Shown in pieces: positions 14,345 to 43,836 of a DNA stretch of 64,000 nucleotides (its first letter is position 1; each line of letters begins with the position of its first letter). The position numbers and the translations under genes are program-made. The stretch lies in NCBI GenBank assembly GCA_963764625.1, contig CAVXTH010000006.1:352001-416000 (forward strand), read 5' to 3'. The DNA is from Candidatus Krumholzibacteriota bacterium (GTDB lineage: Bacteria > Krumholzibacteriota > Krumholzibacteriia > JAJRXK01). The notes below the pieces were generated by a model that worked only from the letters and a program-made list of their open reading frames with translations, ran no database searches and had not been told where the DNA came from.

Positions 14345-15486
14345 GAGAGTCGATCACGCTTCCCGATCGCCGGCTCGTCCTTCTGACTCTCTTACTGGTC
14401 GGACTGGGCATGATCATGGTCTACGCCTCGAGCAGCTATCGCGCGAGCCTGGCCGGAGTGACCGAATTCTCGTTCGCTGCGCGCCAGACGCTCAGGGCGG
14501 TCATCGGGCTCGGCGTAATGTTTCTTTTGGCGTGGATTCCCTACCGTGTTACCTGCCGCTTCGCCCTCATCGCGTTGCCAGCCGCCCTTCTCATGCTATT
14601 GATCACGGTAGTGGGAACGAGTTTCACCCGGGCCTCGTATGGAATCACCCGCTGGCTGCACATCTTCGGCGTCATCGTCCAGCCGGTCGAACTCGTGAAG
14701 TTGGGCCTGGCTCTGGGGTTGCCCTACTGGATCGATCGTCAACCCGAAGTCACCCGCGAGGGAAGAGCGTTCCTTCGCATGGCGACCGTGCCCGGCATCG
14801 CGGTACTCCTCTTGGCCCTCCAACCTAATTTCGGCTCCGCGATGGCGCTGGCGATGCTCTGTCTGAGCCTGTTCTGGCTCGGAGGGGTGAAAGCACGTTG
14901 GCTTTTCTTGCTGGTGCTAGCGGGAGCGGTCCTCTGCTGGTTGGCCTATGCCCATGTAGGCAAGGTGCACGAACGTGTCGCGGCCTGGATGGACCTGCTC
15001 CTACGCGGTGGTCACGACGGACGCTTCGGGTATCAGTCGTACCAGGCGCTGGTGGGTCTGGGAAGCGGCGGATGGCACGGAGTGGGGCCGGGCATGAGCA
15101 CCATGAAGTACCTCTTCTTGCCCGCGAGTCACACCGATTTCATCTTCGCCATCCTGGGCGAAGAACTGGGCTTTTTGGGGGCCGGCGGGCTCATCGTGAT
15201 CCTCTTCTTCTGGTTCGCCCGCACGTTGAAAGTGGCGCGCAACGCTCCCGATGGACTGGCCTATCTGGTCACTCTGAGCGTCGGAGCGATGGTGCTCTGC
15301 TACGCCTTGATCAATCTGGCCGTGGTGGTGGGTTTGATGCCCGTTACCGGTCTTCCGCTGCCCTTCCTGAGTTACGGGGGAAGCGCCCTCATCACCAATC
15401 TGGCTGGAGTCGGAGTGTTGCTGAGCGTGACGCGGCACTTGCGCCGCCGGCGCGCTCCCCACGACCGATGGAGGAACAGGGCATGA
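14341..15486 (+). CDS. ftsW: Peptidoglycan glycosyltransferase FtsW (SEDS)
   Basis: GM.MVYASS, RW, QP.ELVK, QPNFG, LP..HTDFIFAI.GEELG and TGLPLPFLSYGGS motifs. Confidence 0.95.
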   Translation: MRESITLPDRRLVLLTLLLVGLGMIMVYASSSYRASLAGVTEFSFAARQTLRAVIGLGVMFLLAWIPYRVTCRFALIALPAALLMLLITVVGTSFTRASYGITRWLHIFGVIVQPVELVKLGLALGLPYWIDRQPEVTREGRAFLRMATVPGIAVLLLALQPNFGSAMALAMLCLSLFWLGGVKARWLFLLVLAGAVLCWLAYAHVGKVHERVAAWMDLLLRGGHDGRFGYQSYQALVGLGSGGWHGVGPGMSTMKYLFLPASHTDFIFAILGEELGFLGAGGLIVILFFWFARTLKVARNAPDGLAYLVTLSVGAMVLCYALINLAVVVGLMPVTGLPLPFLSYGGSALITNLAGVGVLLSVTRHLRRRRAPHDRWRNRA

Positions 15487-16610
15487 GCGCGCGCTTCCTC
15501 ATCGCGGCCGGTGGCACTGGGGGCCACGTGCAGCCCGCTCTGGCGGTGGCTCGCGCGCTGCTGCGGCAGAGTCCTTCCGCCCGCGTGCACTTCGTGGGAG
15601 GTCGCCGCGGCATCGAGACGCGCCTGGTTCCCGCGGCGGGCTTCCCGCTCACGCGACTTCCGGCGGCCGGACTTCGCGGGCTGGGAATTTGGGGCGCGGT
15701 GCGCTTCGCCCTCAGCTTCGGACTGGCTTTCCTCTTGGCCGTGCCCCTAATTCTGCGCCTGCGTCCCGCCGCGGTTCTCTCGACCGGTGGCTATGCCAGC
15801 GCGGCTCCTTCGGTCGCGGCGGCGCTCATGGGAAAACCCCTGTGGCTGCAAGAGCAGAACTCGGTGCCCGGCTCGACCAACCGCTTCCTCTCGCGCTTTG
15901 CCGAGCGCGCGTACGTGGCCTTTGCGCAGGGAGCGGAGTTCCTTTCGCGCGCCAAGCGGGTCGAAGTACTTCCCAACCCCGTGCGGGAGGAGATCACGAA
16001 CGCGCGGGGCAGCCGGCCGCGATCCGAAGACTACGAAGCATTCGGACTGCAAGATTCTAGCAAACTCACCCTGCTGGTGTTCGGAGGCAGCCGGGGAGCC
16101 TCCCGTCTAAACCAGGCAGTGGTGGGCGCCTGGCAATCGCTCGCGGGGCGGAGCTCCTGGCAAGCACTCGTGCAGACCGGAAGCGAGGACTTGCCGAACG
16201 TGCGCGCTGGGCTGGAAGGCCTCGGCGCGATCACCGCCTGCGCCTACATCGACGATATGGCGGCCGCGTACCGCGTCGCGGATCTCGTGGTGTGCCGGGC
16301 CGGAGCGCTCACCCTGGCCGAACTCTCCGCCATCGGGAAAGCCGCGATCCTCGTGCCCTATCCGCATGCCACGGACGATCACCAAACCCACAACGCCGCC
16401 GCGTTTGAGCAGGCCAAGGCGGCGAGGCTCATCGCCGACGATCGCTTTGATGCGTCGGCGCTCGTGAATCTGCTCGAAGAGTTCCAAGAGAATCCAGCCG
16501 CGCTGGAGACGATGGGGGAGGCGGCGGCGATGATCGCCGCCGGAAGGAACGGTGCTGCTGAGCTCGCCGCCGCCTTGATCTCTCGCGCGCAGGAAGGGAG
16601 GGACGCATGA
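15483..16610 (+). CDS. murG: Lipid II GlcNAc transferase MurG
   Basis: GGTGGHVQP, GGY.S, EQN..PG..N, FGGSRGA, RAGA.T.AE and P.P.A.DDHQ..NA motifs. Confidence 0.95.
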   Translation: MSARFLIAAGGTGGHVQPALAVARALLRQSPSARVHFVGGRRGIETRLVPAAGFPLTRLPAAGLRGLGIWGAVRFALSFGLAFLLAVPLILRLRPAAVLSTGGYASAAPSVAAALMGKPLWLQEQNSVPGSTNRFLSRFAERAYVAFAQGAEFLSRAKRVEVLPNPVREEITNARGSRPRSEDYEAFGLQDSSKLTLLVFGGSRGASRLNQAVVGAWQSLAGRSSWQALVQTGSEDLPNVRAGLEGLGAITACAYIDDMAAAYRVADLVVCRAGALTLAELSAIGKAAILVPYPHATDDHQTHNAAAFEQAKAARLIADDRFDASALVNLLEEFQENPAALETMGEAAAMIAAGRNGAAELAAALISRAQEGRDA

Positions 16611-18046
16611 GTTGGACCGACCGAGGACTTTTCGTGCGACCCGGAGAACGGACCGCCGCGTTCCGTCTCACCCGGCGGATTCACTTCGTCGCCATCGGAG
16701 GCGTGGGTATGAGCGGCATCGCCGAAGTGCTCATCCACCTGGGATTCGAAGTGAGCGGCAGTGACGTTCGAGAAGGTCCGCAGACCCAGCGACTGCAGGA
16801 GATGGGTGCGCAGGTGTGGCTGGGCCATGATGCGCAGCACGTGAGTGATGTGGACGTGGTCGTCTTTTCCTCGGCGGTTCCCCAGAGCAACCCCGAGCTG
16901 GTGGAAGCCCGGCGGAAGGGAATTCCCGTCATCCGCCGCGCGGAGATGCTGGCAGAACTGATGCGTCTCAAGCACGGTGTCGCGGTCGCCGGTTCGCACG
17001 GGAAGACGACGACCAGCAGTCTCATCGCGACCGTCCTCACCGAGGGCGGCCTAGAGCCCACGGTGATCGTGGGAGGAAAGCTCCTGGCGCTCGGCGGGAC
17101 CGCAGTGTTGGGCGGGGGAGAGTACCTGGTCGCGGAGGCGGATGAGAGCGACGGCACTTTCCTGCGGCTCGATCCCACGATCGCGGTGATCACCAACGTG
17201 GATCACGAGCACATGGACCACTACGGAGACATGGAAGCGGTGCGGAAGGCCTTCGTCGACTTCATGGATCGTGTACCGTTCTACGGCAAGGTCATCGCGT
17301 GCAGTGACGATCCCGAACTTGCGGCCCTCTTGCCGCGCATCCGCTGGACTCCTTTCACCTACGGAAGCACGGAGAACTGCGACCTGCGGGTGAGCCGTGA
17401 AAAGGGCGACGATTCCGGAATGCGGCTGCGGTTCTGGCTGCACGAAAATGAACTGGGCACCTGTCAGTTGCCTCTTTTCGGCGCGCACAACGCAATGAAC
17501 GCGGCGGCGGCAGTGGCCACCGGTCTCGAGTTGGGACTGAACTTCGAGCAAATTTCGCGTGCGCTCGTCTGCTTCGGCGGGGTGGGCCGCCGTCTGGAAC
17601 AAAAGGGTGAAGTAGGCGGCATCCTGGTGGTGGACGACTACGGGCACCATCCCACCGAGCTGGGAGTGACCATCGAAGCGCTTCGCGAGAGTTTCCACCG
17701 CCGCCTGGTCGTCGTTTTCCAACCCCATCGCTATACGCGCACCCGCGATCACCACGAAGCGTTCGCGAAAGTGCTCGCTCAGGCCGATGAGGTGGGGATT
17801 CTCCCCATCTATGCCGCGAGCGAGGACCCGATCGAGGGAGTCGACAGCGAACTCATCGCGTCTCGTTTGGAAAAGGAATATTCACGGCCGGTGAAGCGTC
17901 TTCGCACTCTGGATGAGGCAGTGGAATGGGCCAAGAAATCGGCTCGTTCCGGAGATCTCTGGCTAACTCAGGGGGCGGGAGACATCACGCATCTCGCGGA
18001 TCTGCTCTTGCACGCTCTGGCCGACAGAATCGAGGAAGAGGCATGA
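16607..18046 (+). CDS. murC: UDP-MurNAc:L-Ala ligase MurC
   Basis: IGGVGMSGIA, GSHGKTTTS, EADESDG, DDYGHHPTE and FQPHRYTRT motifs. Confidence 0.97.
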   Translation: MSWTDRGLFVRPGERTAAFRLTRRIHFVAIGGVGMSGIAEVLIHLGFEVSGSDVREGPQTQRLQEMGAQVWLGHDAQHVSDVDVVVFSSAVPQSNPELVEARRKGIPVIRRAEMLAELMRLKHGVAVAGSHGKTTTSSLIATVLTEGGLEPTVIVGGKLLALGGTAVLGGGEYLVAEADESDGTFLRLDPTIAVITNVDHEHMDHYGDMEAVRKAFVDFMDRVPFYGKVIACSDDPELAALLPRIRWTPFTYGSTENCDLRVSREKGDDSGMRLRFWLHENELGTCQLPLFGAHNAMNAAAAVATGLELGLNFEQISRALVCFGGVGRRLEQKGEVGGILVVDDYGHHPTELGVTIEALRESFHRRLVVVFQPHRYTRTRDHHEAFAKVLAQADEVGILPIYAASEDPIEGVDSELIASRLEKEYSRPVKRLRTLDEAVEWAKKSARSGDLWLTQGAGDITHLADLLLHALADRIEEEA

Positions 18047-18855
18047 CGAAGATCCGCTACGTCGGTAGCCCGACCCGAAGAGAAAGTGGCGTCGCACCAG
18101 CGCGAACCCGACGGCCCTCCTCTCTAACGCGACGGAAGAAGAATACGCGCGCGCGCCTCAAGTGGATCGCGGCGGCGAGTTCGGTGGTGCTCGGCGGGCT
18201 GCTCGCGCTGAGTCTGGTTCTGCGCGTGCATGCGGTCAAGGTGCAGGGTCACATCGCCGCCGACCAAGCGCACCTTCGCACCGTTCTCTCCGAGTGCTTT
18301 GGCCAGCGGCTGTTCTTCCTGGATAAGGACGAGCTGCGTCAGAAGCTCATCGCGGATCCGTGGATCGAAGATGTGAAGTTCTATCCGCTTCCCACCGGGA
18401 CTCTTCGAGTCGCGGTGCGGGAAGCGAGCCCCGTCTTCTCGCTGGAAGATGGCGGGGCGGTCTGCGCCGACGGGAGAGTTCTGCCTCCCCGGCGCAGCAT
18501 CGATGTGTCCGGTCTACCCCGACTGAGGGCCCCACGTCGGGAGGGGACGACCGTACTGAGCAAGGCCACACGTGAGCTTGTGCGGAAGCTCTGTGTGTCC
18601 TTGAAGCGGACGCCGTGGACCTGGCCTTCGGGCCTCTCGTCGGTGGAGGTGGGGGAGAACGGCAGCGTTCGACTCATCACCGGCGACGGAGTCGAGGTTG
18701 TGTTGGGGTCTGGAGGCTGGGACCGGCGTTTGACGGTATTGACCGCTTCGCTGCCCATGCTACAGCCCGGTCCAGGGGACCGATTGGATCTACGCTTCGA
18801 GAGGCAAGTCGTCGTGACCTCCGCGGGTCAGGCGACGCGCCACATGGGAGGATGA
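18043..18855 (+). CDS. ftsQ: Cell division protein FtsQ/DivIB
   Basis: Basic N-terminus, TM helix, POTRA domain (PWIEDV...P.TLRV.V.E) and C-terminal LDLRF motif; precedes ftsA. Confidence 0.85.
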   Translation: MTKIRYVGSPTRRESGVAPARTRRPSSLTRRKKNTRARLKWIAAASSVVLGGLLALSLVLRVHAVKVQGHIAADQAHLRTVLSECFGQRLFFLDKDELRQKLIADPWIEDVKFYPLPTGTLRVAVREASPVFSLEDGGAVCADGRVLPPRRSIDVSGLPRLRAPRREGTTVLSKATRELVRKLCVSLKRTPWTWPSGLSSVEVGENGSVRLITGDGVEVVLGSGGWDRRLTVLTASLPMLQPGPGDRLDLRFERQVVVTSAGQATRHMGG

Positions 18856-18856
18856 A

Positions 18857-20074
18857 ATGGAGCAAGAACCTGTTCTCGCGGGTCTGGACCTGGGGTCCAC
18901 ACGATTTCGTGCCGTGGTAGCCGAACCGGACGGGAATGGAGGGGTGGCCATCTTGGGTCACGCCTCCGTTCCCAGCCGCGGCTACACCCGCAGTGAACTC
19001 GTGGATCTGCCCGCGGCCGCGTTGGCGCTGAGGGGACTCCTGGATACCGCCTGCGGAATCGCCGGCGTCATCCCGCAGTCCATCGCGGTCGGGGTGGGAG
19101 GGTCTCACCTGCGGAGCGTCTCCTCCAGCGGATCGATTTCGCTGGACGAGTCCGGAGGGCACGTGCGGGGCGAGCATCTGGAACGGGTTCGTCGGCGAGT
19201 TCAGGCCATGGGAATCCCTTTCGATCGGGTGATTCTCCACTGTTTCCCCGTGGAGTACACCCTCGACGGCCGCGGAGGTCTGCAGAACCCGATCGGCATG
19301 ATGGGCTCCCGCTTACAGCTCGACGCCCATTTGGTCACCGGAGAGCAGGCGGCGGTGCAGGCCATCGATCGCGTGGTCGAGATGGCGGGGTACAAGGCCG
19401 ATCCGCTCGTCTTCAATCCCTGCGCTACCGCCGCCTATCTTGTGTCGCAGGAAGAGAGGGAGCAGGGCTGCCTGCTCATCGATATCGGGGGCGAACTCAC
19501 CCATTTCGCGCTCTTCTGCCGGGGCCGATTGCGGCAGAGTGGGGTTGTCCCCTTGGGAGGAAATCACGTCACGAGAGACCTCGCCTACGTTTTGGGTGTT
19601 GATCCCAAGGAGGCAGAGGTACTAAAAAGGACAACGGCCAGCGCTCTGCGCTCGAAGGTCCTACCCCACGGAGGCAGCCCCACCGCCTCTACCGTCGATT
19701 CGTCGAGTGCTATCCAAACCAGGGTAGCGGCAGTTTGCGAACCCCGACAGCAGGAGATCCTGGAGCATGTCGCCTCCGGCCTGCAGTGGGGAGTGACGCG
19801 ACCCTCCCTGGCGGCGGGGATCATTCTCACCGGTGGTGGGAGCAGAATTCCCGGAACGGTGGAGCTCGCCGAGCAGGTCTTCGCGCTGAGAGCGGACCAG
19901 AGGCGTGCTCCAGGTGACGATCTGTCTCAGGAGCCGGATTCCTGGGCGACGGCGCTCGGACTGAGCCGGAGAGCTCTACAACACGAACACTCCCTTCCTC
20001 TAGCCCCCATCGCTAGTCCCGGGGGAGGGAGACTCTGGAGCAATTTCAAACGCATTCTCGATCGCATCGTGTGA
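18857..20074 (+). CDS. ftsA: Cell division protein FtsA
   Basis: GLDLGST, NPIGM.G.RL, DIGG..T, GG..VT.DL and GIILTGGGS motifs plus a C-terminal amphipathic helix. Confidence 0.93.
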   Translation: MEQEPVLAGLDLGSTRFRAVVAEPDGNGGVAILGHASVPSRGYTRSELVDLPAAALALRGLLDTACGIAGVIPQSIAVGVGGSHLRSVSSSGSISLDESGGHVRGEHLERVRRRVQAMGIPFDRVILHCFPVEYTLDGRGGLQNPIGMMGSRLQLDAHLVTGEQAAVQAIDRVVEMAGYKADPLVFNPCATAAYLVSQEEREQGCLLIDIGGELTHFALFCRGRLRQSGVVPLGGNHVTRDLAYVLGVDPKEAEVLKRTTASALRSKVLPHGGSPTASTVDSSSAIQTRVAAVCEPRQQEILEHVASGLQWGVTRPSLAAGIILTGGGSRIPGTVELAEQVFALRADQRRAPGDDLSQEPDSWATALGLSRRALQHEHSLPLAPIASPGGGRLWSNFKRILDRIV

Positions 20075-20123
20075 GAGGGAGAGCGTTTGTCCCCCATGAC
20101 ACGGTTTAAGCTGGAGGATTCCA

Positions 20124-21509
20124 ATGATGATGTTCGAGTTCGAAGAGGAATACACGGATCAGGCTCAAATCCGAGTCGTGGGAGTCGGTGGAGCGGGCGG
20201 GAACGCCGTCAACGGAATGGTGGCCTCCGGTTTACCCGGAGTGGAGTTCGTCGCCATCAACACCGATGCGCAAGCTCTGCAGGAGAGCCAGGCCACCAAC
20301 AAGGTGCAGATCGGAGCCAAGATCACCCGCGGACTGGGTTCGGGCGGAGACCCGCGCGTGGGCAGCAAGGCGGTCGAGGAAGATGAGAACACGGTGGCCG
20401 AGGTGCTGACCGGCGCCGACATGGTGTTCGTCACCGCGGGCATGGGTGGAGGAACCGGGACGGGAGCGGCGCCCACCGTGGCCCGCATCGCGCGGGAGTT
20501 GGGGGCGCTCGTGGTGGGGATCGTCACCATGCCCTTCACTTTTGAAGGGCGTCACCGTAGAACCCAGGCCTGCGAGGGTTTCGAAGCGCTCAAGTCGCAA
20601 GTGGACACCCTCATCGCCATCCAGAACGATCGGTTGCTCAAGATCGTTCCCGCGAACACTCCCCTCACCGATGCCTTCCGGGTGGCGGACATGGTGCTCT
20701 ACCACGCCACCAAGGGTATCAGCGACCTCATCACCGTGCCCGGTCTGGTGAATCTCGATTTTGCCGACGTGCGCAGCATCATGACCGGAATGGGAGACGC
20801 CATCATGGGCGCGGGCGTCGCCAAGGGCGACACGCGCGCGGCCGACGCGGCCACCGCGGCCATCTCGAGCCCACTTCTCGACGAGATCGACATTCGCGGC
20901 GCCAAGGGAGTGCTGGTCAACATCACCGGCGCGAGCGACATGACTCTCCACGAGGTGAGCGAGGCGACGAGCATCATCCAGGACGGTGTGGGCAGCGAAG
21001 CGAATCTCATCTTCGGAGCCGTCATCGATCCCAATGCAGGAGAGGAGATGCGGGTGACGGTGATCGCCACCGGGTTCGGCGATCCCGCGCGCCAATCTCC
21101 GCGCGTGGGAATCGACATGAACATGGTGAGACCTCTCACCCAGCCGGTTCCCCTGCAGAAGGTCGCGAGTCGTCAGAGCCCGAAGACCCCGGCGCCGGAG
21201 CCCTTCGCTCCCACCCAGGCTCCGGCCGCCAGCCACGGCACCGCCTCGGTTCAGGCGCAAGCTCCTTCCAGCCATGCGATGGAGGCTGGAAGAGGCAGAC
21301 AGCTGTCGTTGGAAGAGAACATTGCGAGTCCGCCGGAGAACGAGTCGGCTCAGGCACCGCGGCGTTCGATGTTCGAGCCCGAGGGTGCGCCGCCGCGGCC
21401 GATCCCTCTCGAGCAAGAGGAGGATCTGCCTCTGAAAGCTCGCCCAGCCCGTAGTGGTCGTGGCGCGGACCTGGACATCCCGACCTTCATCCGCAAGACG
21501 ATGGACTGA
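20124..21509 (+). CDS. ftsZ: Cell division protein FtsZ
   Basis: [20 protein letters not shown] and N.DFADV motifs, Pro/Ala-rich linker and C-terminal [10 protein letters not shown] peptide. Confidence 0.98.
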
Positions 21510-28928: not shown

Positions 28929-28944
28929 TGGTCCGAACCTTGCT
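28929..28944 (+). promoter_or_regulatory. Sigma54 (-24/-12) promoter
   Basis: TGGTCCGAACCTTGCT: GG-N10-GC, ~90 nt upstream of the zinc-ribbon gene. Confidence 0.6.
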
Positions 28945-29030
28945 GCTTCAGGCCACCACAAGGAACTAGAAGCCCCCCGAGAGGCCGCGCCGGCCGTCAA
29001 TGGGGGAGTCTTTAGACACGTGGAGAGGCC

Positions 29031-29894
29031 ATGATCGTCCAGTGTGCAGAATGCAAGACTTCCTACCGGCTTCAGGCCGAACTCGTTCCCCCGCGAAGGG
29101 TCCAGACGCGATGCAACCGCTGTGGACACGTCTTTGCCATCGTTGGACCAGAAGCAGGCGGCCAAGGTTTCACGGCGAGTCGCGGACCGAACGCAGCGGC
29201 CTCGATCGCACCGCAGGCACCGACTTCGTCCAACCGCTACGGTGATGTTGATCTCGGCGCGGCGCCAGCGCGAGAAGAGACCCGTGCCGCTCCACCGTTC
29301 GTACCGCCTCTGGCCCCCGCTCCGCAGGCTCCGGCCCGCGCGGCGAATCCCACGCCCCCCCAAGCTGCTCCGGCTCCGGCCGCGGCCCACGACTCCGCTC
29401 CGATTTCCGGCGGGCGGGACATGGATCTCCAGCTCGAGAGGTCCGAAGGCTTTCCGGCGGCGTCTCCACGGAACCGTGATGTGGCGGGCGTGAATTCCCC
29501 GGCTGCTGCGCCCATGGAGCCGGCGCGTCGCTCGGGTGTCGCGCTCGAGACTCCTCCCAATGGCACTCCCTCCTCGTTCCGCGAACTGGATCTGGACGAG
29601 ACCGCTCTCAACGCAGCTCCCAGCGATGAGGCTCCGGCCAACCCCGAGGAGCAACGCAAGCACGACAAGTCGCGTCGTCTCGCCCGGGCCCTGGTGAGCG
29701 ACATCCTGGTCTACAACCGCGCCAAGCGCGATGCCGCGCTCCAGTCCGGCAAGTTGGTGCAGGAGCTGGGTCCGGAGATCAAGAAGTCCTGGGAAGTCTA
29801 CAAGGAGCGCGTGACCCCCGAGGTGGCGAACTCCACCAACCATTTTCGCGAGGCTCTGAATGACATCCTGGCGGATGGTCAGCCGATTTTCTGA
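29031..29894 (+). CDS. MJ0042-type zinc-ribbon protein with Pro/Ala linker and conserved-looking C-terminal helical domain
   Basis: MIVQCAECKTSY...RCNRCGHVF zinc ribbon; C-terminal RRLARALVSDILVYN...F.EALNDILA domain. Confidence 0.8.
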   Translation: MIVQCAECKTSYRLQAELVPPRRVQTRCNRCGHVFAIVGPEAGGQGFTASRGPNAAASIAPQAPTSSNRYGDVDLGAAPAREETRAAPPFVPPLAPAPQAPARAANPTPPQAAPAPAAAHDSAPISGGRDMDLQLERSEGFPAASPRNRDVAGVNSPAAAPMEPARRSGVALETPPNGTPSSFRELDLDETALNAAPSDEAPANPEEQRKHDKSRRLARALVSDILVYNRAKRDAALQSGKLVQELGPEIKKSWEVYKERVTPEVANSTNHFREALNDILADGQPIF

Positions 29895-29933
29895 AAGTAC
29901 AATAGTTTAACACTTTCATTTAAAGTGAAAACT

Positions 29934-29968
29934 GAAAAACCCCGGCACCGTAGGCGCCGGGGTTTTTC
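29934..29968. terminator. Bidirectional intrinsic terminator
   Basis: GAAAAACCCCGGCACC-GTA-GGCGCCGGGGTTTTTC between convergent genes, with A- and T-tracts on both sides. Confidence 0.85.
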
Positions 29969-29989
29969 GTGCTGCCAAGCGAGGCGAGT

Positions 29990-30442
29990 TCAGTCGCTCT
30001 TGTCCCACTTCTTGTCGCTGATCTCCTGGAGGATCCCGTCGATCTGGCCGCGGATCCGCATGTTCTGGTCCGGCTCGAAAAGAGCTTTCTTCACGCGACC
30101 GTACTTGTCCTTCTTCACGAAGCGCAGGGACTGGAGCGAGCTCATGGGGACGAGGATGTCCTTGCAGACCTGGACCTCGACGTCGCGGCCCTCGACCGTT
30201 TGCGGGGGATTGTTATCCGGGTGCATCCCCAGGCCCCACCCGTGCACGACCATGGAGCAGATGAGGGCGCGGAAGGTGTTCTGCCCCTGACTGGTCTCGA
30301 GGTCGATGCTGCCTTGCACCTTCTGGATGACTCCGTCGACCACGTAGCTGAGCTTCCGCGCGACCGAAGGCGAGACCTTCATGTTCAAGAGTCGGCTGAA
30401 CATTTCGGCCAGAATTTTGTCCGTGCTACTCGTTTTCTCCAC
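29990..30442 (-). CDS. Hypothetical protein (150 aa)
   Basis: GTG start with a GAGGAGG RBS, GC3-biased codons, and a terminator downstream; no recognised family. Confidence 0.75.
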   Translation of the reverse strand: MEKTSSTDKILAEMFSRLLNMKVSPSVARKLSYVVDGVIQKVQGSIDLETSQGQNTFRALICSMVVHGWGLGMHPDNNPPQTVEGRDVEVQVCKDILVPMSSLQSLRFVKKDKYGRVKKALFEPDQNMRIRGQIDGILQEISDKKWDKSD

Positions 30443-30532
30443 CGGGAGCCTCCTCGCGGCTTCGCGAGTCGGGAATTGACGGCCGCTCTCTCTCGCGTGA
30501 GGGAGGGAGGGCGAAGGGGTCTCCCGAAGGAA

Positions 30533-30548
30533 TGCAAGGGTGGTGCCC
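30533..30548 (-). promoter_or_regulatory. Sigma54 (-24/-12) promoter
   Basis: Minus strand GGGCACCACCCTTGCA: GG-N10-GC, ~90 nt upstream of the 150-aa gene. Confidence 0.6.
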
Positions 30549-30694
30549 GAAGTTCAGGGACCCCGTGGCTGGCTAAAGCTCGGTTCCGATCGGCCGATTG
30601 CGCCCGGCGGGCAAGGGAGAGCCGGCCCCGGGAGGGGTGCATCCTTCCCCGAAAGGGTGGGAGGAGGACCAAGACGGAGCCTGCCTGCCCAGGA

Positions 30695-30709
30695 TGGCAT
30701 GGAGATTGC
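30695..30709 (+). promoter_or_regulatory. Sigma54 (-24/-12) promoter
   Basis: TGGCATGGAGATTGC, near-consensus, ~80 nt upstream of the mglA ATG. Confidence 0.7.
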
Positions 30710-30788
30710 CTTGGATCTCAGTGCGCGAAGTCGATCGCTCTTCGCCGCAAATGTGGCGAGACGCATTCCACGATCCCTGCGAGACACC

Positions 30789-32306
30789 ATGGTCGTCTAT
30801 AACTACAGCGGTAAGGAAATCAACGCGAAGATCGTCTATTACGGTCCCGCGCTCAGCGGTAAGACCACCAATCTGGAGTGGATCTACTCGAAGATCCCTC
30901 TGGAGTACTCGGGCAAGATGATCTCGCTGCGAACCCAAACTGACCGCACGATTTTCTTCGATTTCCTCCCCTTGGAGCTGGGGCTGATCGATGGCTTCAA
31001 GACTCGCTTCATGCTCTACACGGTACCCGGGCAGGTCTACTACAACGCCACCCGGAAGATGGTGCTCAAGGGAGCCGATGGAGTGGTCTTCGTCGCGGAC
31101 AGCGAAGAGGACCGGATGGAGGACAACCTGGAGAGTCTGCAAAACCTCAAGGACAATCTGGAAGAGATCGGCCTGGATCCTCACACCATTCCGATCGTCT
31201 TGCAGTGGAACAAGCGTGATTTACCCTCAACGGTCGAAACCGAGCAGCTGGAGCGCCAACTCAACCCGGAAGGCCATCCCTCCTTCGCCGCCTGCGCGCT
31301 AACCGGCGAGGGCGTGTACGAATCCCTGCACCAGATCAGCCGCATGATCTACCGCAATCTCACCACCGAAGAGGGAATGGTTCCTGCGGCGAACCAGAAT
31401 CCCGAGAACGTTTCCTCGCTCTTTGGCGAGGACATCGAGGCCCGCCTGCGGGACGTGGACTACCCGGACCCGACCCTCAAGGACTCCGTGACTCTGCAGG
31501 GTTCTCCCACGGTCGGCGGCGCGAGCTCGAAGGATACGGATGTGCTGAGCTCGATCCTGGGCAGCTTGAACTCCCCAGTCCTGAACGAGGACAAGAGCGA
31601 ACAATCTCAGGAGAGTGCCGAGACGGTGGCGGTGGGGGCGCGGACGGCGGCTGCGGCTGGCGAGGGACAGTCCCCCGTCGGTTCACAATCAGGATTCGAA
31701 ACGAAAGGCCCAGAGAACATGTCCCAGAGGCCCACCCCATCCGGCGATTCGCTGGCAGAGCGTCAGATTGGCTCGGATCAGTCCAGGAGCCAGCCCACGC
31801 GCCCGATCCAGCCCGCGCCGACAAGAGCTCACTCCCAAGAATCTCCTCTCGTGGACGAAGCAGTGGCGGATCTCGTCGACAGCCTCTTTAGCCCCAGTGA
31901 AGAGGGTGCAAGCGAAGAGCCCGTCGAGAACGACGAACTGGCCTATGAATCCGACTTTGGCCGCATGGTCGATCTGGGACCGGACTCCCAGGCGGGGAAG
32001 CGTGCGCCCGAAGAAGAGGATTTCGAACTCCCGGCCGACCTGCTCGAATCCGGTGCCTTCAGCGCTGTTGTGGCCGAAGAGGAAGAGGAGCCGGAATCTC
32101 TGGAGCTCATCACCGACCCACGTAAGAAACCGGCCGATTCGGGCTCGGGTCCGGGAATGCCGCTCAGTGCGGATTTCCAGACCGGTGCATTCAAGCCTCT
32201 TTCAGGGGGTACGCGCACGATCGAAGTGCCCGTGACCCTCGACGCGGATCTGTTGGACGAGGGTCAATCGGTCCGGATCATTCTGAATCTGAAGCTGCTT
32301 CGCTGA
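30789..32306 (+). CDS. mglA: MglA-family small GTPase with long acidic C-terminal extension
   Basis: EINAKIVYYGPALSGKTTNL, DRTIFFDFLPL, YTVPGQVYY, GADGVVFVADS and NKRDL motifs, then ~310 aa of acidic low-complexity tail. Confidence 0.88.
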   Translation: MVVYNYSGKEINAKIVYYGPALSGKTTNLEWIYSKIPLEYSGKMISLRTQTDRTIFFDFLPLELGLIDGFKTRFMLYTVPGQVYYNATRKMVLKGADGVVFVADSEEDRMEDNLESLQNLKDNLEEIGLDPHTIPIVLQWNKRDLPSTVETEQLERQLNPEGHPSFAACALTGEGVYESLHQISRMIYRNLTTEEGMVPAANQNPENVSSLFGEDIEARLRDVDYPDPTLKDSVTLQGSPTVGGASSKDTDVLSSILGSLNSPVLNEDKSEQSQESAETVAVGARTAAAAGEGQSPVGSQSGFETKGPENMSQRPTPSGDSLAERQIGSDQSRSQPTRPIQPAPTRAHSQESPLVDEAVADLVDSLFSPSEEGASEEPVENDELAYESDFGRMVDLGPDSQAGKRAPEEEDFELPADLLESGAFSAVVAEEEEEPESLELITDPRKKPADSGSGPGMPLSADFQTGAFKPLSGGTRTIEVPVTLDADLLDEGQSVRIILNLKLLR

Positions 32307-32343
32307 GCGGACGCGTACCAACCCAGCGAGCGCGCACCTGATC

Positions 32344-32380
32344 GAGCCGGAGGCGGATTGCCTCCGGCTCTCGTTTCGTT
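32344..32380 (+). terminator. Intrinsic terminator
   Basis: GAGCCGGAGGC-GGATT-GCCTCCGGCTC followed by TCGTTTCGTT. Confidence 0.7.
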
Positions 32381-32396
32381 CCCTTCCGCGACGAGA

Positions 32397-32425
32397 TTGA
32401 CAGCGAACCCGGTGCGTCCTAGCCT
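32397..32425 (+). promoter_or_regulatory. Sigma70-type promoter
   Basis: TTGACA, 17-bp spacer, TAGCCT upstream of the TPR-trpA-uppP-moeA operon. Confidence 0.7.
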
Positions 32426-32467
32426 GCGCTGAGACCGCCTCTGGTTCCCCATCTCAGGTCGTGATCG

Positions 32468-33319
32468 ATGTCTGAAGCTTCGCTGCGGTTGCAATCGACG
32501 AATGATGATCCCGTTGCGCGGGCTCGTGTGCTCGAGAACGAAGGACGTCTCGAGGAAGCGATGCAAGTACTGGCCGCGCTCCCCGAAGGGCCCCGTTCCT
32601 CGGCGGACGCCAGCTACCGCGTGGCGCACATCTGCCTGCAACAGGGGAAGTTGGAGGAGGCGGAATCCTGGCTCCGCCAAACCCTGAACTTGCGCTACGA
32701 GGATGCACGTGCGCATACGAATCTCGGAGTGGTTCTCGATCTGCGTGGCCGTCACCAGGATGCGATCCGGGCCTTTCGCAGGGCGATCCAGCTGGCTCCC
32801 GACGAACCCGCGGCGTACCTGAATCTGGGCGCGATCTACGGCGAGCTCGGACGTCACGAAGATGCGGTCCGCTGTCTCGAGCGCTGCCTCGAGCTGGCAC
32901 CGGCCTTCGATGCGATGTTCAACCTGGCTCTGGTGCGCTTGCGCCAGGGCGAATTGGCTCCAGCGGAGAGACTCCTCGAGAGCGCTCTGAACGAGAGTGG
33001 AGATCATCCTCTGGCCCACTACTACTTGGGGCTCTGTCGTTCGCGTCGCGGGCTGCTTAAGGAAGCCACGCACGCCTTCGAAGCCGCGCTGGCGTGCAAC
33101 GCCGATCTCGTGCGTGCGCGCTATCACCTGGGAAAGGTTCATCGCCGTCTCGGTCATCCTCACGACGCGGTGCGGGAGCTCAAGAAGGTGGCGCATGCCC
33201 TCCCCGACGATGCGCAGGTCATGCGCGAGTTGGGTTTCGCCTACGACGCACTCTCCTTGAAATCGGAGTCTCTCCGGTGCTTTCGTCGAGCTCGCATGCT
33301 CGACGAGACGGACAGTTGA
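32468..33319 (+). CDS. Tetratricopeptide repeat protein
   Basis: Canonical TPRs (AHTNLGVVL, AYLNLGAIY, AMFNLAL, ARYHLG). Confidence 0.85.
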   Translation: MSEASLRLQSTNDDPVARARVLENEGRLEEAMQVLAALPEGPRSSADASYRVAHICLQQGKLEEAESWLRQTLNLRYEDARAHTNLGVVLDLRGRHQDAIRAFRRAIQLAPDEPAAYLNLGAIYGELGRHEDAVRCLERCLELAPAFDAMFNLALVRLRQGELAPAERLLESALNESGDHPLAHYYLGLCRSRRGLLKEATHAFEAALACNADLVRARYHLGKVHRRLGHPHDAVRELKKVAHALPDDAQVMRELGFAYDALSLKSESLRCFRRARMLDETDS

Positions 33320-42453: not shown

Positions 42454-43836
42454 ATGACTGAGCGTGTCTCCCCCGAATCGACGCAAAACGACTCGTTGGC
42501 TCTCTGCATGGCCCAACGTGACAACATGCGTGCGATCTTCGACAGCGTGGCCGACGGCATCTTCACCATCGACACCAGCCTCTACGTCACCAATGCCAAC
42601 GAATCGTTCCGGGAAATGGTGCGCTGCCCGTCGGAGTTGAAGACCTCCTGTGCCATCGCCGACCTCTTCCGCGTGGAGGGTGGCGCGCTCGAAGAACTCC
42701 TCGGGAGAACCCTCAAAGGAGAGAAAATCCGCCAGGAAGACGTCGAGATCCGGCCGGTAAAAGGTGGCACTCTGGTGGCGACTCTGCAGGCAGCGCCCCT
42801 CCATGACGAGGAAGGAAAGGTGGGGGGCGCGGTGGTTGTTCTACACGACGTGACCCGCATGCGTTCGCTCGAAGACGACCTGCGTCTGGCAAGTGGTCCC
42901 CAGGGCCTGGTGGGTAAAAACGTGCGGATGCTGGAGATCTACCAGCTCATCGAGCAACTCGCGGACAATGACGTGAGTGTTCTCATCACCGGTGAAAGCG
43001 GCACGGGAAAGGAGGTCGTCGCTTCGGCGATTCACGCGCGCAGCCATCGTCGCGAGCGGCCCTTCGTGCGCGTGAATTGCGCGGCCCTCAGTGAAACCCT
43101 GCTCGAGAGTGAACTCTTCGGGCACGTGCGTGGGGCCTTCACCGGGGCCATCCGGGACCGCAAGGGTCGCTTCGAGGTGGCGCATCGGGGGACCATCTTC
43201 CTGGATGAAGTCGGCGCGGTGAGTCTCGAGGTGCAAAAGAGGCTCTTGCGCGTGCTTCAGGAGCGTCAATTCGAACGGGTGGGAGAGGAGAACACGCAAG
43301 AGGTCGACGTGCGCGTCATCGCGGCCACGAACGCCGACTTGAAAGCGATGGTGGTGGAAGGCAGCTTCCGCGAGGACCTCTACTATCGATTGAACGTGGT
43401 GCACCTGCACATCCCTGCCTTGCGCGAACGACGTGAGGACATTCCCTCTCTGGCCGAGCACTTACTGAAGCGCCATGCGGATTCCATGGGCCGGGGCCGG
43501 ATGAGTTTCGATGCCGAGGCGCTTTCGCTTCTCATGGCCTTTCGGTGGGAGGGGAACGTACGGCAGCTTGAGAACGCGGTGCTGCGCGCGCTGGTGGTGT
43601 CCAGGGGACGGGTGATTCGCCCCCAGCATCTGCCGCCTGAGATCCTCAAGGCGGCCGGCGCGTCGCCGGCGGGAGGCGCCCCCCGTGACCCGAACGCCCT
43701 CTCGGCCTCCCAGGCCGAGCTGCTGCGCGCCCTGGCGGAGGCGGACGGAAACCTGGGACGCGCGGCCCGGAAGCTGGGGATCCACCGCACCACTCTGTGG
43801 CGCCGCCTGAAGAAGCACGGCCTCAGGCCCCGCTGA
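42454..43836 (+). CDS. PAS-domain sigma54-dependent transcriptional activator (Fis-type HTH)
   Basis: PAS domain, GESGTGKE, ESELFGH..GAFTGA, FLDEVG, FREDLYYRL and AARKLGIHRTTLWRRL motifs. Confidence 0.93.
   Translation: MTERVSPESTQNDSLALCMAQRDNMRAIFDSVADGIFTIDTSLYVTNANESFREMVRCPSELKTSCAIADLFRVEGGALEELLGRTLKGEKIRQEDVEIRPVKGGTLVATLQAAPLHDEEGKVGGAVVVLHDVTRMRSLEDDLRLASGPQGLVGKNVRMLEIYQLIEQLADNDVSVLITGESGTGKEVVASAIHARSHRRERPFVRVNCAALSETLLESELFGHVRGAFTGAIRDRKGRFEVAHRGTIFLDEVGAVSLEVQKRLLRVLQERQFERVGEENTQEVDVRVIAATNADLKAMVVEGSFREDLYYRLNVVHLHIPALRERREDIPSLAEHLLKRHADSMGRGRMSFDAEALSLLMAFRWEGNVRQLENAVLRALVVSRGRVIRPQHLPPEILKAAGASPAGGAPRDPNALSASQAELLRALAEADGNLGRAARKLGIHRTTLWRRLKKHGLRPR

Follow-up and report, generated by a model that had tools for sequence, protein, structure and literature searches.

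A tailed MglA paralogue and a RomX-like neighbour in a conserved sigma-54 locus of an uncultured bacterial class: a possible second polarity switch beside a canonical MglB/MglA pair

The small GTPase MglA is a model for Ras-like polarity control in bacteria. To our knowledge, nearly all of what has been learned about it stems from work on Myxococcus, Thermus and Bdellovibrio, in which MglA is a bare G domain of 20 kDa; the orphan paralogue SofG of Myxococcus xanthus, which has N- and C-terminal extensions, works with bactofilins. Here we describe a locus at positions 28929-33319 of a window of 64,000 nt (contig CAVXTH010000006.1, 352,001-416,000) from a Candidatus Krumholzibacteriota bacterium. 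It holds a gene for an MglA paralogue with a long C-terminal tail (long mglA) and three neighbours, which encode a zinc ribbon (ZnR) fused to a RomX-like domain (ZnR-RomX), a 150-aa protein (p150) and a tetratricopeptide repeat (TPR) protein. Positions refer to the window unless another sequence is named; G000 is the source genome, and the genomes from G001 onward are its relatives within the class.

In MglA, Arg53 acts as an intrinsic arginine finger, Gln82 is the catalytic glutamine and a threonine replaces aspartate in the G3 motif, TxxGQ (PMC3199381, PMC3000849). Gly21 is the equivalent of Ras Gly12, and the substitution G21V strongly lowers both intrinsic and MglB-stimulated hydrolysis (Miertzschke et al., PMC3199381). 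In deltaproteobacteria, Gly21 co-occurs with mglB, while the MglA of Bdellovibrio, which carries Ser21 and has no MglB, binds the TPR protein Bd2492 in a 1:1 complex (Milner et al., PMC3983030). The Asp/Glu-rich C-terminal helix (Ct-helix) of MglB occupies a pocket of MglA formed by Lys181 and Lys185 of alpha5 and by Leu64 and Ile67 of the beta2-beta3 loop, and a Glu-rich helix of RomR can replace it (Baranwal 2019, PMC6785124). RomX of M. xanthus, an exchange and recruitment factor working with RomR, binds MglA-GTP through its helix 1; the R11A/R14A variant loses binding and exchange, D19A loses exchange, and the contacts with RomR are made by Leu75/Arg76 and Trp87 of helix 3 (bioRxiv 10.1101/2024.02.20.581209). 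The same work found zinc-finger domains among the Foldseek matches to the RomX fold, which were not followed up. In GltJ, a flexible linker binds MglA-GTP and the zinc ribbon then recruits MglB (PMC11135422). Coupled MglA/MglB proteins have been defined by the presence of mglB within four genes, and 59 uncoupled MglAs were counted in that study and set aside from it (Wuichet and Sogaard-Andersen 2014, PMC4316618).

Compared with these systems, the locus may encode a second, sigma-54-gated MglA-type polarity switch beside a canonical MglB/MglA pair, a reading to which we give about an even chance. The long mglA gene (30789-32306, + strand) encodes 505 aa. The open reading frame (ORF) list sets its start at GTG 30540; all homologues begin with MVVYNYSGKE, so the true start is ATG 30789. 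Its product is an MglA-family GTPase (Ras superfamily, Group 1). The G domain comprises residues 1-195 with the P-loop GPALSGKT, and residues 3-191 match the MglA of M. xanthus (5ymx, E=1.8e-70) and that of T. thermophilus (3t12, E=1.3e-67). The catalytic Arg and Gln and the G4 motif, already recognised in an earlier reading made from the sequence only, are indeed kept as Arg53 (TDRT), Gln82 and NKRD, together with the Thr of G3 (TVPGQ); both TDRT and TVPGQ are invariant in 24/24 aligned long homologues. The protein thus shares with the Myxococcus and Thermus MglAs (5ymx, 6izw, 6h17, 3t12) the G domain, these motifs and Phe56/57/59. It differs from them in its tail of 310 aa with a terminal hairpin motif, in Ala at position 21, in the lack of an mglB within four genes, in its sigma-54 promoter and in being a second copy beside a canonical MglA of 192 aa.

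The contig that carries the locus also contains, 85 kb upstream, the mglB-mglA pair to which this canonical copy belongs (G000:C6:296752-297855). The pair consists of a 167-aa Roadblock MglB, the sole Robl_LC7 match in the genome, followed by the 192-aa MglA, which is 58% identical to the long MglA. No Roadblock/LC7 mglB occurs within four genes of long mglA, as the sequence-only reading had noted. Its term "orphan MglA" is right for the position of the gene but not for the cell, as the search for a canonical mglBA pair found one in G000 and adjacent mglB-mglA genes also in 20/20 fetched relatives. In a tree of 40 G domains, built without the long MglAs of G001-G004, 18 long MglAs grouped in a single clade (100/100 support), apart from the 21 canonical MglAs. 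The branch leading to this clade was long (0.92), and a divergent copy from G030 fell outside it. The tree and the canonical pair together show that long mglA is an old paralogue, orphan by position only and not the only MglA of the cell. In this it resembles SofG, likewise a second, MglB-uncoupled MglA-family GTPase beside mglBA (PMC4316618), although it lacks an N-terminal extension. Long MglA-like proteins seem to be very numerous, with thousands of them in the database: a search for homologues of 277-884 aa at E<=0.001 gave at least 8000 candidates, of which the best 120 were inspected. The literature consulted, which did not extend to the supplementary orphan-MglA lists of PMC4316618, contained no description of tailed MglAs or of the four-gene module.

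The second line of evidence comes from the neighbouring ZnR-RomX gene (29031-29894, + strand; 287 aa; Pfam PF13717, E=3.5e-12). Its product begins with a zinc ribbon of the MJ0042/GltJ type (CxxC...CxxC, residues 1-37), continues with an Ala/Pro-rich linker of ~170 aa (~residues 41-205) and ends with a RomX-like domain (residues 212-281, DNA 29664-29873). In a PDB sequence search, this domain aligned without gaps to residues 7-76 of RomX (8zna_A) with E=2e-9. All three of the functional RomX residues Arg11, Arg14 and Asp19 are kept, as Arg216, Arg219 and Asp224. The N-terminal ribbon gave a weak match (E=0.0023) to PDB 7zok_A, "Adventurous gliding motility protein X" (AgmX). We take AgmX to be GltJ, and 7zok hence to be the GltJ ribbon. 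The gene therefore encodes a single polypeptide in which a linker joins a zinc ribbon of the GltJ type to a true RomX homologue, and the zinc-ribbon partner that had been proposed as a non-canonical regulator turns out to be a fused form of a known type. How ribbon and linker work may be pictured by analogy with the GltJ switch (PMC11135422), with the difference that ZnR-RomX has neither the GYF domain nor the membrane part of GltJ.

Orthologues of ZnR-RomX were found in 21/21 genomes, G000 included, and the motif RRLAR.LVSD in 18/21 of them; the Asp is changed in G014, G024 and G029. Only one RomX-like domain was found in the genome, and an ESM Atlas search with this part of the protein gave unnamed clusters only. 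Unlike RomX (8ZNA), the domain is fused behind a ribbon and linker, and the end of helix 3 that contacts RomR has no equivalent, because the match extends only to RomX residue 76 and just six more residues follow before the C-terminus (...ILADGQPIF, an ending conserved class-wide). No RomR-like architecture (receiver, Pro-rich linker, acidic end) was seen in the 20 of 29 receiver-domain hits that were read; RomR was looked for by architecture only, with no RomR query sequence, and the nine remaining hits comprise eight matches to activator genes and one frame of 1034 aa.

The third line of evidence is promoter conservation. Candidate sigma-54 sites were scored by the number of matches at the 11 specified positions of TGGCAC-N5-TTGCW, with GG and GC ten bases apart. 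The sequence-only reading had assigned a separate GG-N10-GC promoter to the zinc-ribbon, 150-aa and mglA genes, and three elements of this type, each correctly oriented, scored 9, 10 and 9 of 11: TGGTCC-N5-TTGCT at 28929-28944 (+), 86 nt 5' of the ZnR-RomX gene, GGGCAC-N5-TTGCA at 30533-30548 (-), 90 nt 5' of the p150 gene, and TGGCAT-N5-TTGCC at 30695-30710 (+), 78 nt 5' of long mglA. Sites of such quality number 578 in the 3.57 Mb of the genome (0.16/kb, both strands), and mononucleotide shuffles of the two intergenic regions yielded at least one site in 42/2000 and 128/2000 trials. In an alignment of the p150-mglA spacer from 10 family genomes (mean column identity 48%), the two -24/-12 elements were the only invariant blocks, and the five-base spacers within both of them varied. 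The alignment contained no further invariant block that could be a binding site for an activator common to the two divergent promoters.

The elements were followed across the class, with G013, G014, G024, G029 and G030 scanned separately from the 15-genome counts. In front of long mglA, 21 of the 22 genomes examined have a site with a score of at least 9, and G029 has only a score-8 site before its GTPase gene. The ZnR-RomX gene is preceded by the same element in 5/5 genomes of the genus and by a site scoring at least 8 in all 15 further class genomes (at least 9 in 11). The p150 site scores 10 in 10/10 family genomes; among the same 15 genomes, five of which are also family genomes, 14 have a site of at least 8 and nine a site of at least 9. 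Four of the five separately scanned genomes carry a ZnR-RomX site of at least 9, and G030 only a score-8 site, whose placement is unclear as it lies 505 nt inside the region of 680 nt that was scanned between the end of recG and the RomX-like part; p150 has a site of at least 8 in four of these five and none in G030. The background in 245 kb of loci, per single-strand window of 250 nt, is 0.046 for scores of at least 9 and 0.166 for scores of at least 8. The counts come from kin genomes and are not independent of each other; they are informative nevertheless because the flanking DNA has diverged. The three elements therefore appear to be real and conserved class-wide. The genome has one rpoN gene and 17 genes for strong activators (enhancer-binding proteins, EBPs).

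The fourth line of evidence concerns position 21. The residue equivalent to Ras Gly12 is Ala in the long MglA, which thereby lacks two features of the classical coupled system, Gly21 and an adjacent mglB. Ala21 is present in 6/6 aligned long MglAs of family f1 (genera g1-g4) and in 43/121 long homologues, that is, the query and the best 120 from the database search. With G029 and G030 left aside, Gly21 was found in 21/21 canonical MglAs and in 11/11 long MglAs from other families. By analogy with G21V, we infer that Ala21 slows GTP hydrolysis. A close parallel is the Bdellovibrio bacteriovorus MglA/Bd2492 system (PMC3983030), which likewise has no cognate or neighbouring MglB and a residue other than Gly at position 21 (Ser there, Ala here); Bd2492 (353 aa) and the TPR protein of our locus (283 aa) are both cytoplasmic and of similar size. 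Unlike here, mglB is wholly lost in Bdellovibrio, its MglA is tailless and Bd2492 is encoded with tamAB and not beside mglA.

Under the reading of a second switch, an activator would turn the module genes on in response to a certain signal. The RomX-like domain would bind the GTP form of the long MglA, perhaps also that of the canonical MglA, and promote nucleotide exchange or recruit the protein, with the fused zinc ribbon taking over the task of localisation from the missing RomR. Ala21 would slow hydrolysis and make the switch largely independent of MglB, as has been proposed for Bdellovibrio MglA. The disordered acidic tail would act as a long tether, whose short motifs and terminal hairpin would dock on a partner or a cell site, and the neighbouring TPR protein would be the first candidate receptor for it, by analogy with Bdellovibrio. 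The locus shows a different MglA arrangement across a whole uncultured class, in which coexistence with a canonical pair, a residue-level RomX match, Ala21 and a class-wide promoter footprint come together. It also offers a natural comparison of MglB-coupled and uncoupled MglA within one cell. The claim of a co-regulated GTPase module with non-canonical regulators is upheld in part, by synteny, by the class-wide promoters and by a RomX homologue with its contact residues. The part that cast the 150-aa and TPR proteins as MglA regulators is not borne out, as both are kept in two genomes without MglA and p150 is not Roadblock-like.

Several observations weigh against the reading of a second switch. 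A common sigma factor does not mean a common activator. The slow-hydrolysis effect known for position 21 of MglA is that of Val, not of Ala. A canonical MglB could still act on the long MglA, since Phe56, Phe57 and Phe59 are retained; all three shift in the beta2 screw, and Phe57 and Phe59 contact MglB. The acidity of the tail is not universal, with neutral to basic isoelectric points (pI 7.1-8.5) in G011, G016 and G021. Eight genomes have 1.5-4.6 kb of unrelated genes between p150 and long mglA. The conserved block also includes recG, trpA and uppP, which limits what can be read from the order of genes by itself. In this genome, moreover, a terminator-like hairpin stands between long mglA and the TPR gene. 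The MglA-free genomes G014 and G024 keep recG, ZnR-RomX, p150 and TPR, with sigma-54 sites 5' of ZnR-RomX and p150, and the identity of the TPR protein is ~32-34% with or without MglA.

Alternatively, the arrangement may be inherited gene order only, which is possible but, in our judgement, clearly less than probable. According to this explanation, an old block of recG, ZnR-RomX, p150, TPR and uppP either gained long mglA by insertion or lost it; p150 and the TPR protein would be class-specific proteins of general function that have nothing to do with the GTPase, and the canonical MglA would be the one served by ZnR-RomX. Synteny was found in all 20 fetched class relatives (loci of 8.5-16 kb): recG is followed by ZnR-RomX, by p150 in the reverse orientation, by long mglA in those genomes that have it and by TPR, often with trpA or uppP 3' of the TPR gene. 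A TPR homologue lies downstream, after long mglA where this is present, in 18/20 relatives, and in G027 and G012 the locus ends at or near the contig end. The presence of p150 in 31/31 genomes, three of which have no MglA at all at E<=1e-20, its unchanged identity and that of TPR with or without MglA, the sigma-54 sites of ZnR-RomX and p150 in G014 and G024, the eight insertions and the single RomX-like gene for two MglAs all favour inherited order. Retention in G014 and G024 indeed indicates that ZnR-RomX, p150 and TPR have a role that does not need the long MglA.

Other features of the same genomes speak against inherited order. Every relative that has long mglA carries it in one slot, directly 5' of the TPR gene, and in 14/31 genomes searched it is directly divergent from p150, at a distance of 300-550 nt. 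The pairs MglA-TPR and MglA-RomX have precedents. Moreover, the RomX-like domain diverges sharply only where MglA has been lost: its identity is 50-83% in the 18 fetched loci with a GTPase gene and 32-35% in the MglA-free G014 and G024. The same-family genome G029, with a GTPase gene at the locus, has 50%, and the equivalent of Asp19 is changed in all three. For p150 (46-47% without MglA, 50% in G029) and TPR (32-33% and 34%) there is no comparable drop. As its identity falls in the MglA-free genomes, unlike that of p150 and TPR, we read the RomX-like protein as tied to MglA; these genomes act as a natural control for the module.

The inserted genes, which occur in other families of the class and were named by eye from their translations, encode an MFS-like transporter, a GT4 glycosyltransferase, a lysophospholipid-acyltransferase-like protein and small proteins, one of them with a zinc ribbon. 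Examples are L045:6519-8103, L050:6174-9882 and L054:5982-10590, where a separate sigma-54 site is still found 146-190 nt 5' of long mglA.

The tail itself comprises residues 196-505 (310 aa) and contains 59 Asp+Glu against 23 Lys+Arg, with a pI of 4.1. In the full-length AlphaFold2 model, its predicted local distance difference test (pLDDT) values are below 50, except for the last 25 residues at 67-77, and residues 196-476 are thus modelled as an acidic, disordered segment. An alignment of 24 homologues revealed conserved islands in it: a SLFG..IA..L helix at ~210-227, D.L..ILG at ~250-260, an acidic LVD..L (LVD.VL) helix at ~354-367 and L.LITDPRK at 438-446. The end of the protein is formed by the motif h.hPV.h ... 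h[RK]hhL.h.h (residues 477-505, DNA 32217-32303), which reads as a strand-turn-strand because of its two stretches of alternating hydrophobic residues; DSSP assigned no strand pairing to it in the model. A local profile of the motif matched 111/121 long homologues and lay at most 15 residues from the end in 108 of them. The description of a 310-aa acidic tail with a beta-rich end therefore agrees with the pI and with the conservation of the last ~29 residues. By eye, the motif is present in 16/18 class orthologues, being absent in G029, while G012 is cut at the contig end. Across full-length tails ending in the motif, tail length ranges from 146 to 362 aa. No other frame of the genome carries the motif (next best E=1.8). 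A search with the last 70 tail residues alone, which is of low sensitivity given the short motif, returned four near relatives, all of them known close homologues; three carry an Arf-family domain and the fourth is an unannotated protein of 371 aa on a 1.3-kb contig.

It is conceivable that this tail regulates its own G domain in cis, with the helix at ~354-367 (VADLVDSLFSP) or the terminal hairpin filling the allosteric pocket, so that an element within the long MglA would promote exchange or inhibit the protein itself, and MglB and RomR would both be dispensable. We consider this unlikely. The strictly conserved C-terminus of the class MglB, EID[SNKR]LF.[DE] (L001:1447-1950 and relatives), shares DSLF with the tail, and the pocket residues Leu64, Ile67 and Arg185 are kept in the long MglA; position 181, however, is His instead of Lys, and the likeness amounts to four or five letters in one genome, with LVD.VL elsewhere, which is too short to serve as evidence. 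The RomR-like architecture missing from the receiver-domain hits read and the RomX-like domain that stops short of the RomR-contact residues would suit a GTPase regulating itself, and so would the higher model confidence of the last 25 residues. Against this, the AlphaFold2 helices have pLDDT values of 50-60, the terminal motif lacks DSSP strand pairing and three of the genomes examined encode a neutral or basic tail.

A non-cycling scaffold, in which Ala21 essentially locks the GTP form and the protein, as a fixed landmark or an adaptor, is a step towards the pseudo-GTPases of a sister family, also appears improbable: Ala21 in family f1, the long branch of the clade (0.92) and a degenerate GTPase in the same slot of G030 (GPPRGGKS, 33% identity) that keeps the terminal motif would fit it, but Arg53, Gln82, Thr54, Thr26 and NKRD are invariant in the 24-sequence alignment, which argues for continued selection on hydrolysis, and the long MglAs of other families keep Gly21.

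The G030 gene (L052:6284-7205), from the sister family, has a tree branch length of 10 and a score-10 sigma-54 site 77 nt upstream. One gene slot in the lineage thus runs from a putatively active to a degenerate GTPase.

Going beyond the second switch as set out above, the module might be a self-contained switch, with the acidic tail acting in cis in place of the MglB/RomR helix, the ZnR-anchored RomX replacing RomR/RomX and the hairpin fixing the protein to a landmark such as the TPR protein. We hold this to be rather improbable. If it were true, the long MglA would be a GTPase on a tether, served by an exchange factor and by no GTPase-activating protein (GAP), and its presence would be set by a sigma-54 activator and not by pole-to-pole oscillation.

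The p150 gene (29990-30442, - strand) is single-copy in 31/31 class genomes, with 46-97% identity between the proteins. An alignment of 24 sequences has 54 invariant columns, among them Cys62, His67, His74 and Cys93. These four residues lie in the most conserved blocks (QGQNTFRALICSMVVHGWGLGMHPDNNP and VCKDILVP) and may form a metal site. No Pfam or NCBIfam family matched p150, and the best hit of a PDB profile search was at chance level (E=0.47). All 663 homologues are named hypothetical. A profile search of 1.84 billion proteins gave 36 cluster representatives but did not reveal any distant homologue that contains a known domain, and the ESM Atlas contained only matches of <=0.82 to unnamed clusters. 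Beyond its narrow family, p150 thus has no detectable relatives. The AlphaFold2 model (mean pLDDT 53) was too poor for use. A hidden Roadblock/LC7 domain, which would make p150 an MglB-like GAP, was considered and rejected, as the hhalign probability against the MglB alignment was 0.7%. The conserved sigma-54 promoter is the one solid fact on p150, a strongly conserved 150-aa family of unknown fold tied to the same regulatory logic as long mglA.

All four genes lie where the sequence-only reading had placed the zinc-ribbon, divergent 150-aa, MglA and TPR genes. The TPR gene (32468-33319, + strand; 283 aa, cytoplasmic) matched Pfam TPR families with E down to 1.7e-35. A GC-rich hairpin of 16 pairs with A/T runs on both sides (29934-29968), between the convergent ZnR-RomX and p150 genes, is predicted to be a bidirectional terminator of both. 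Long mglA is followed by a terminator-like hairpin of 12 pairs and a T-rich run (32344-32370, +), which suggests that it is transcribed alone in this genome. With these two hairpins separating neighbours, all four genes look monocistronic here. The 5' leader of long mglA gave a consensus fold of only -2.76 kcal/mol over 10 family sequences, with no compensated pair, and Rfam had nothing near its thresholds there.

Type IV pilus genes are present in the genome as well, in the cluster pilB-pilT-pilC-pilS-pilR-pilA. Score-10 sigma-54 sites lie 78 nt 5' of pilB and 76 nt 5' of pilA, which encodes a pilin of 101 aa with an N_methyl motif (L082:510-525 and L082:7939-7954; G000:C6:529309 and 536738). 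No flagellin was found in the assembly, which is 96% complete. Type IV pili, the canonical MglBA pair and the long-MglA module thus coexist, and by their promoters the pili and the module appear to share a sigma factor. The pilR gene consists of two overlapping frames, a receiver domain (L082:6367-7104) and an AAA+ part (L082:6752-8023), which may reflect a frameshift or an assembly error.

Among the activators, the nearest candidate to the module, without a link to its three promoters, lies 10 kb downstream at 42454-43836 of the window and has PAS, AAA+ and HTH_8 domains. One of the two perfect (11/11) sigma-54 sites of the genome, at ~203 of L034 (G000:C9:267454), precedes by 33 nt a 268-aa protein that by eye looks like a FliA/sigma-28-type sigma factor, and an activator gene follows at C9:268752-269252. 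The end of a division and cell-wall cluster (murG, murC, ftsQ, ftsA, ftsZ) lies 7.5 kb upstream of the module, at 14898-21509 of the window, and is followed by three genes, whose products are a TPR protein, a radical-SAM protein and a SurA-like protein of the TPR-PpiC type.

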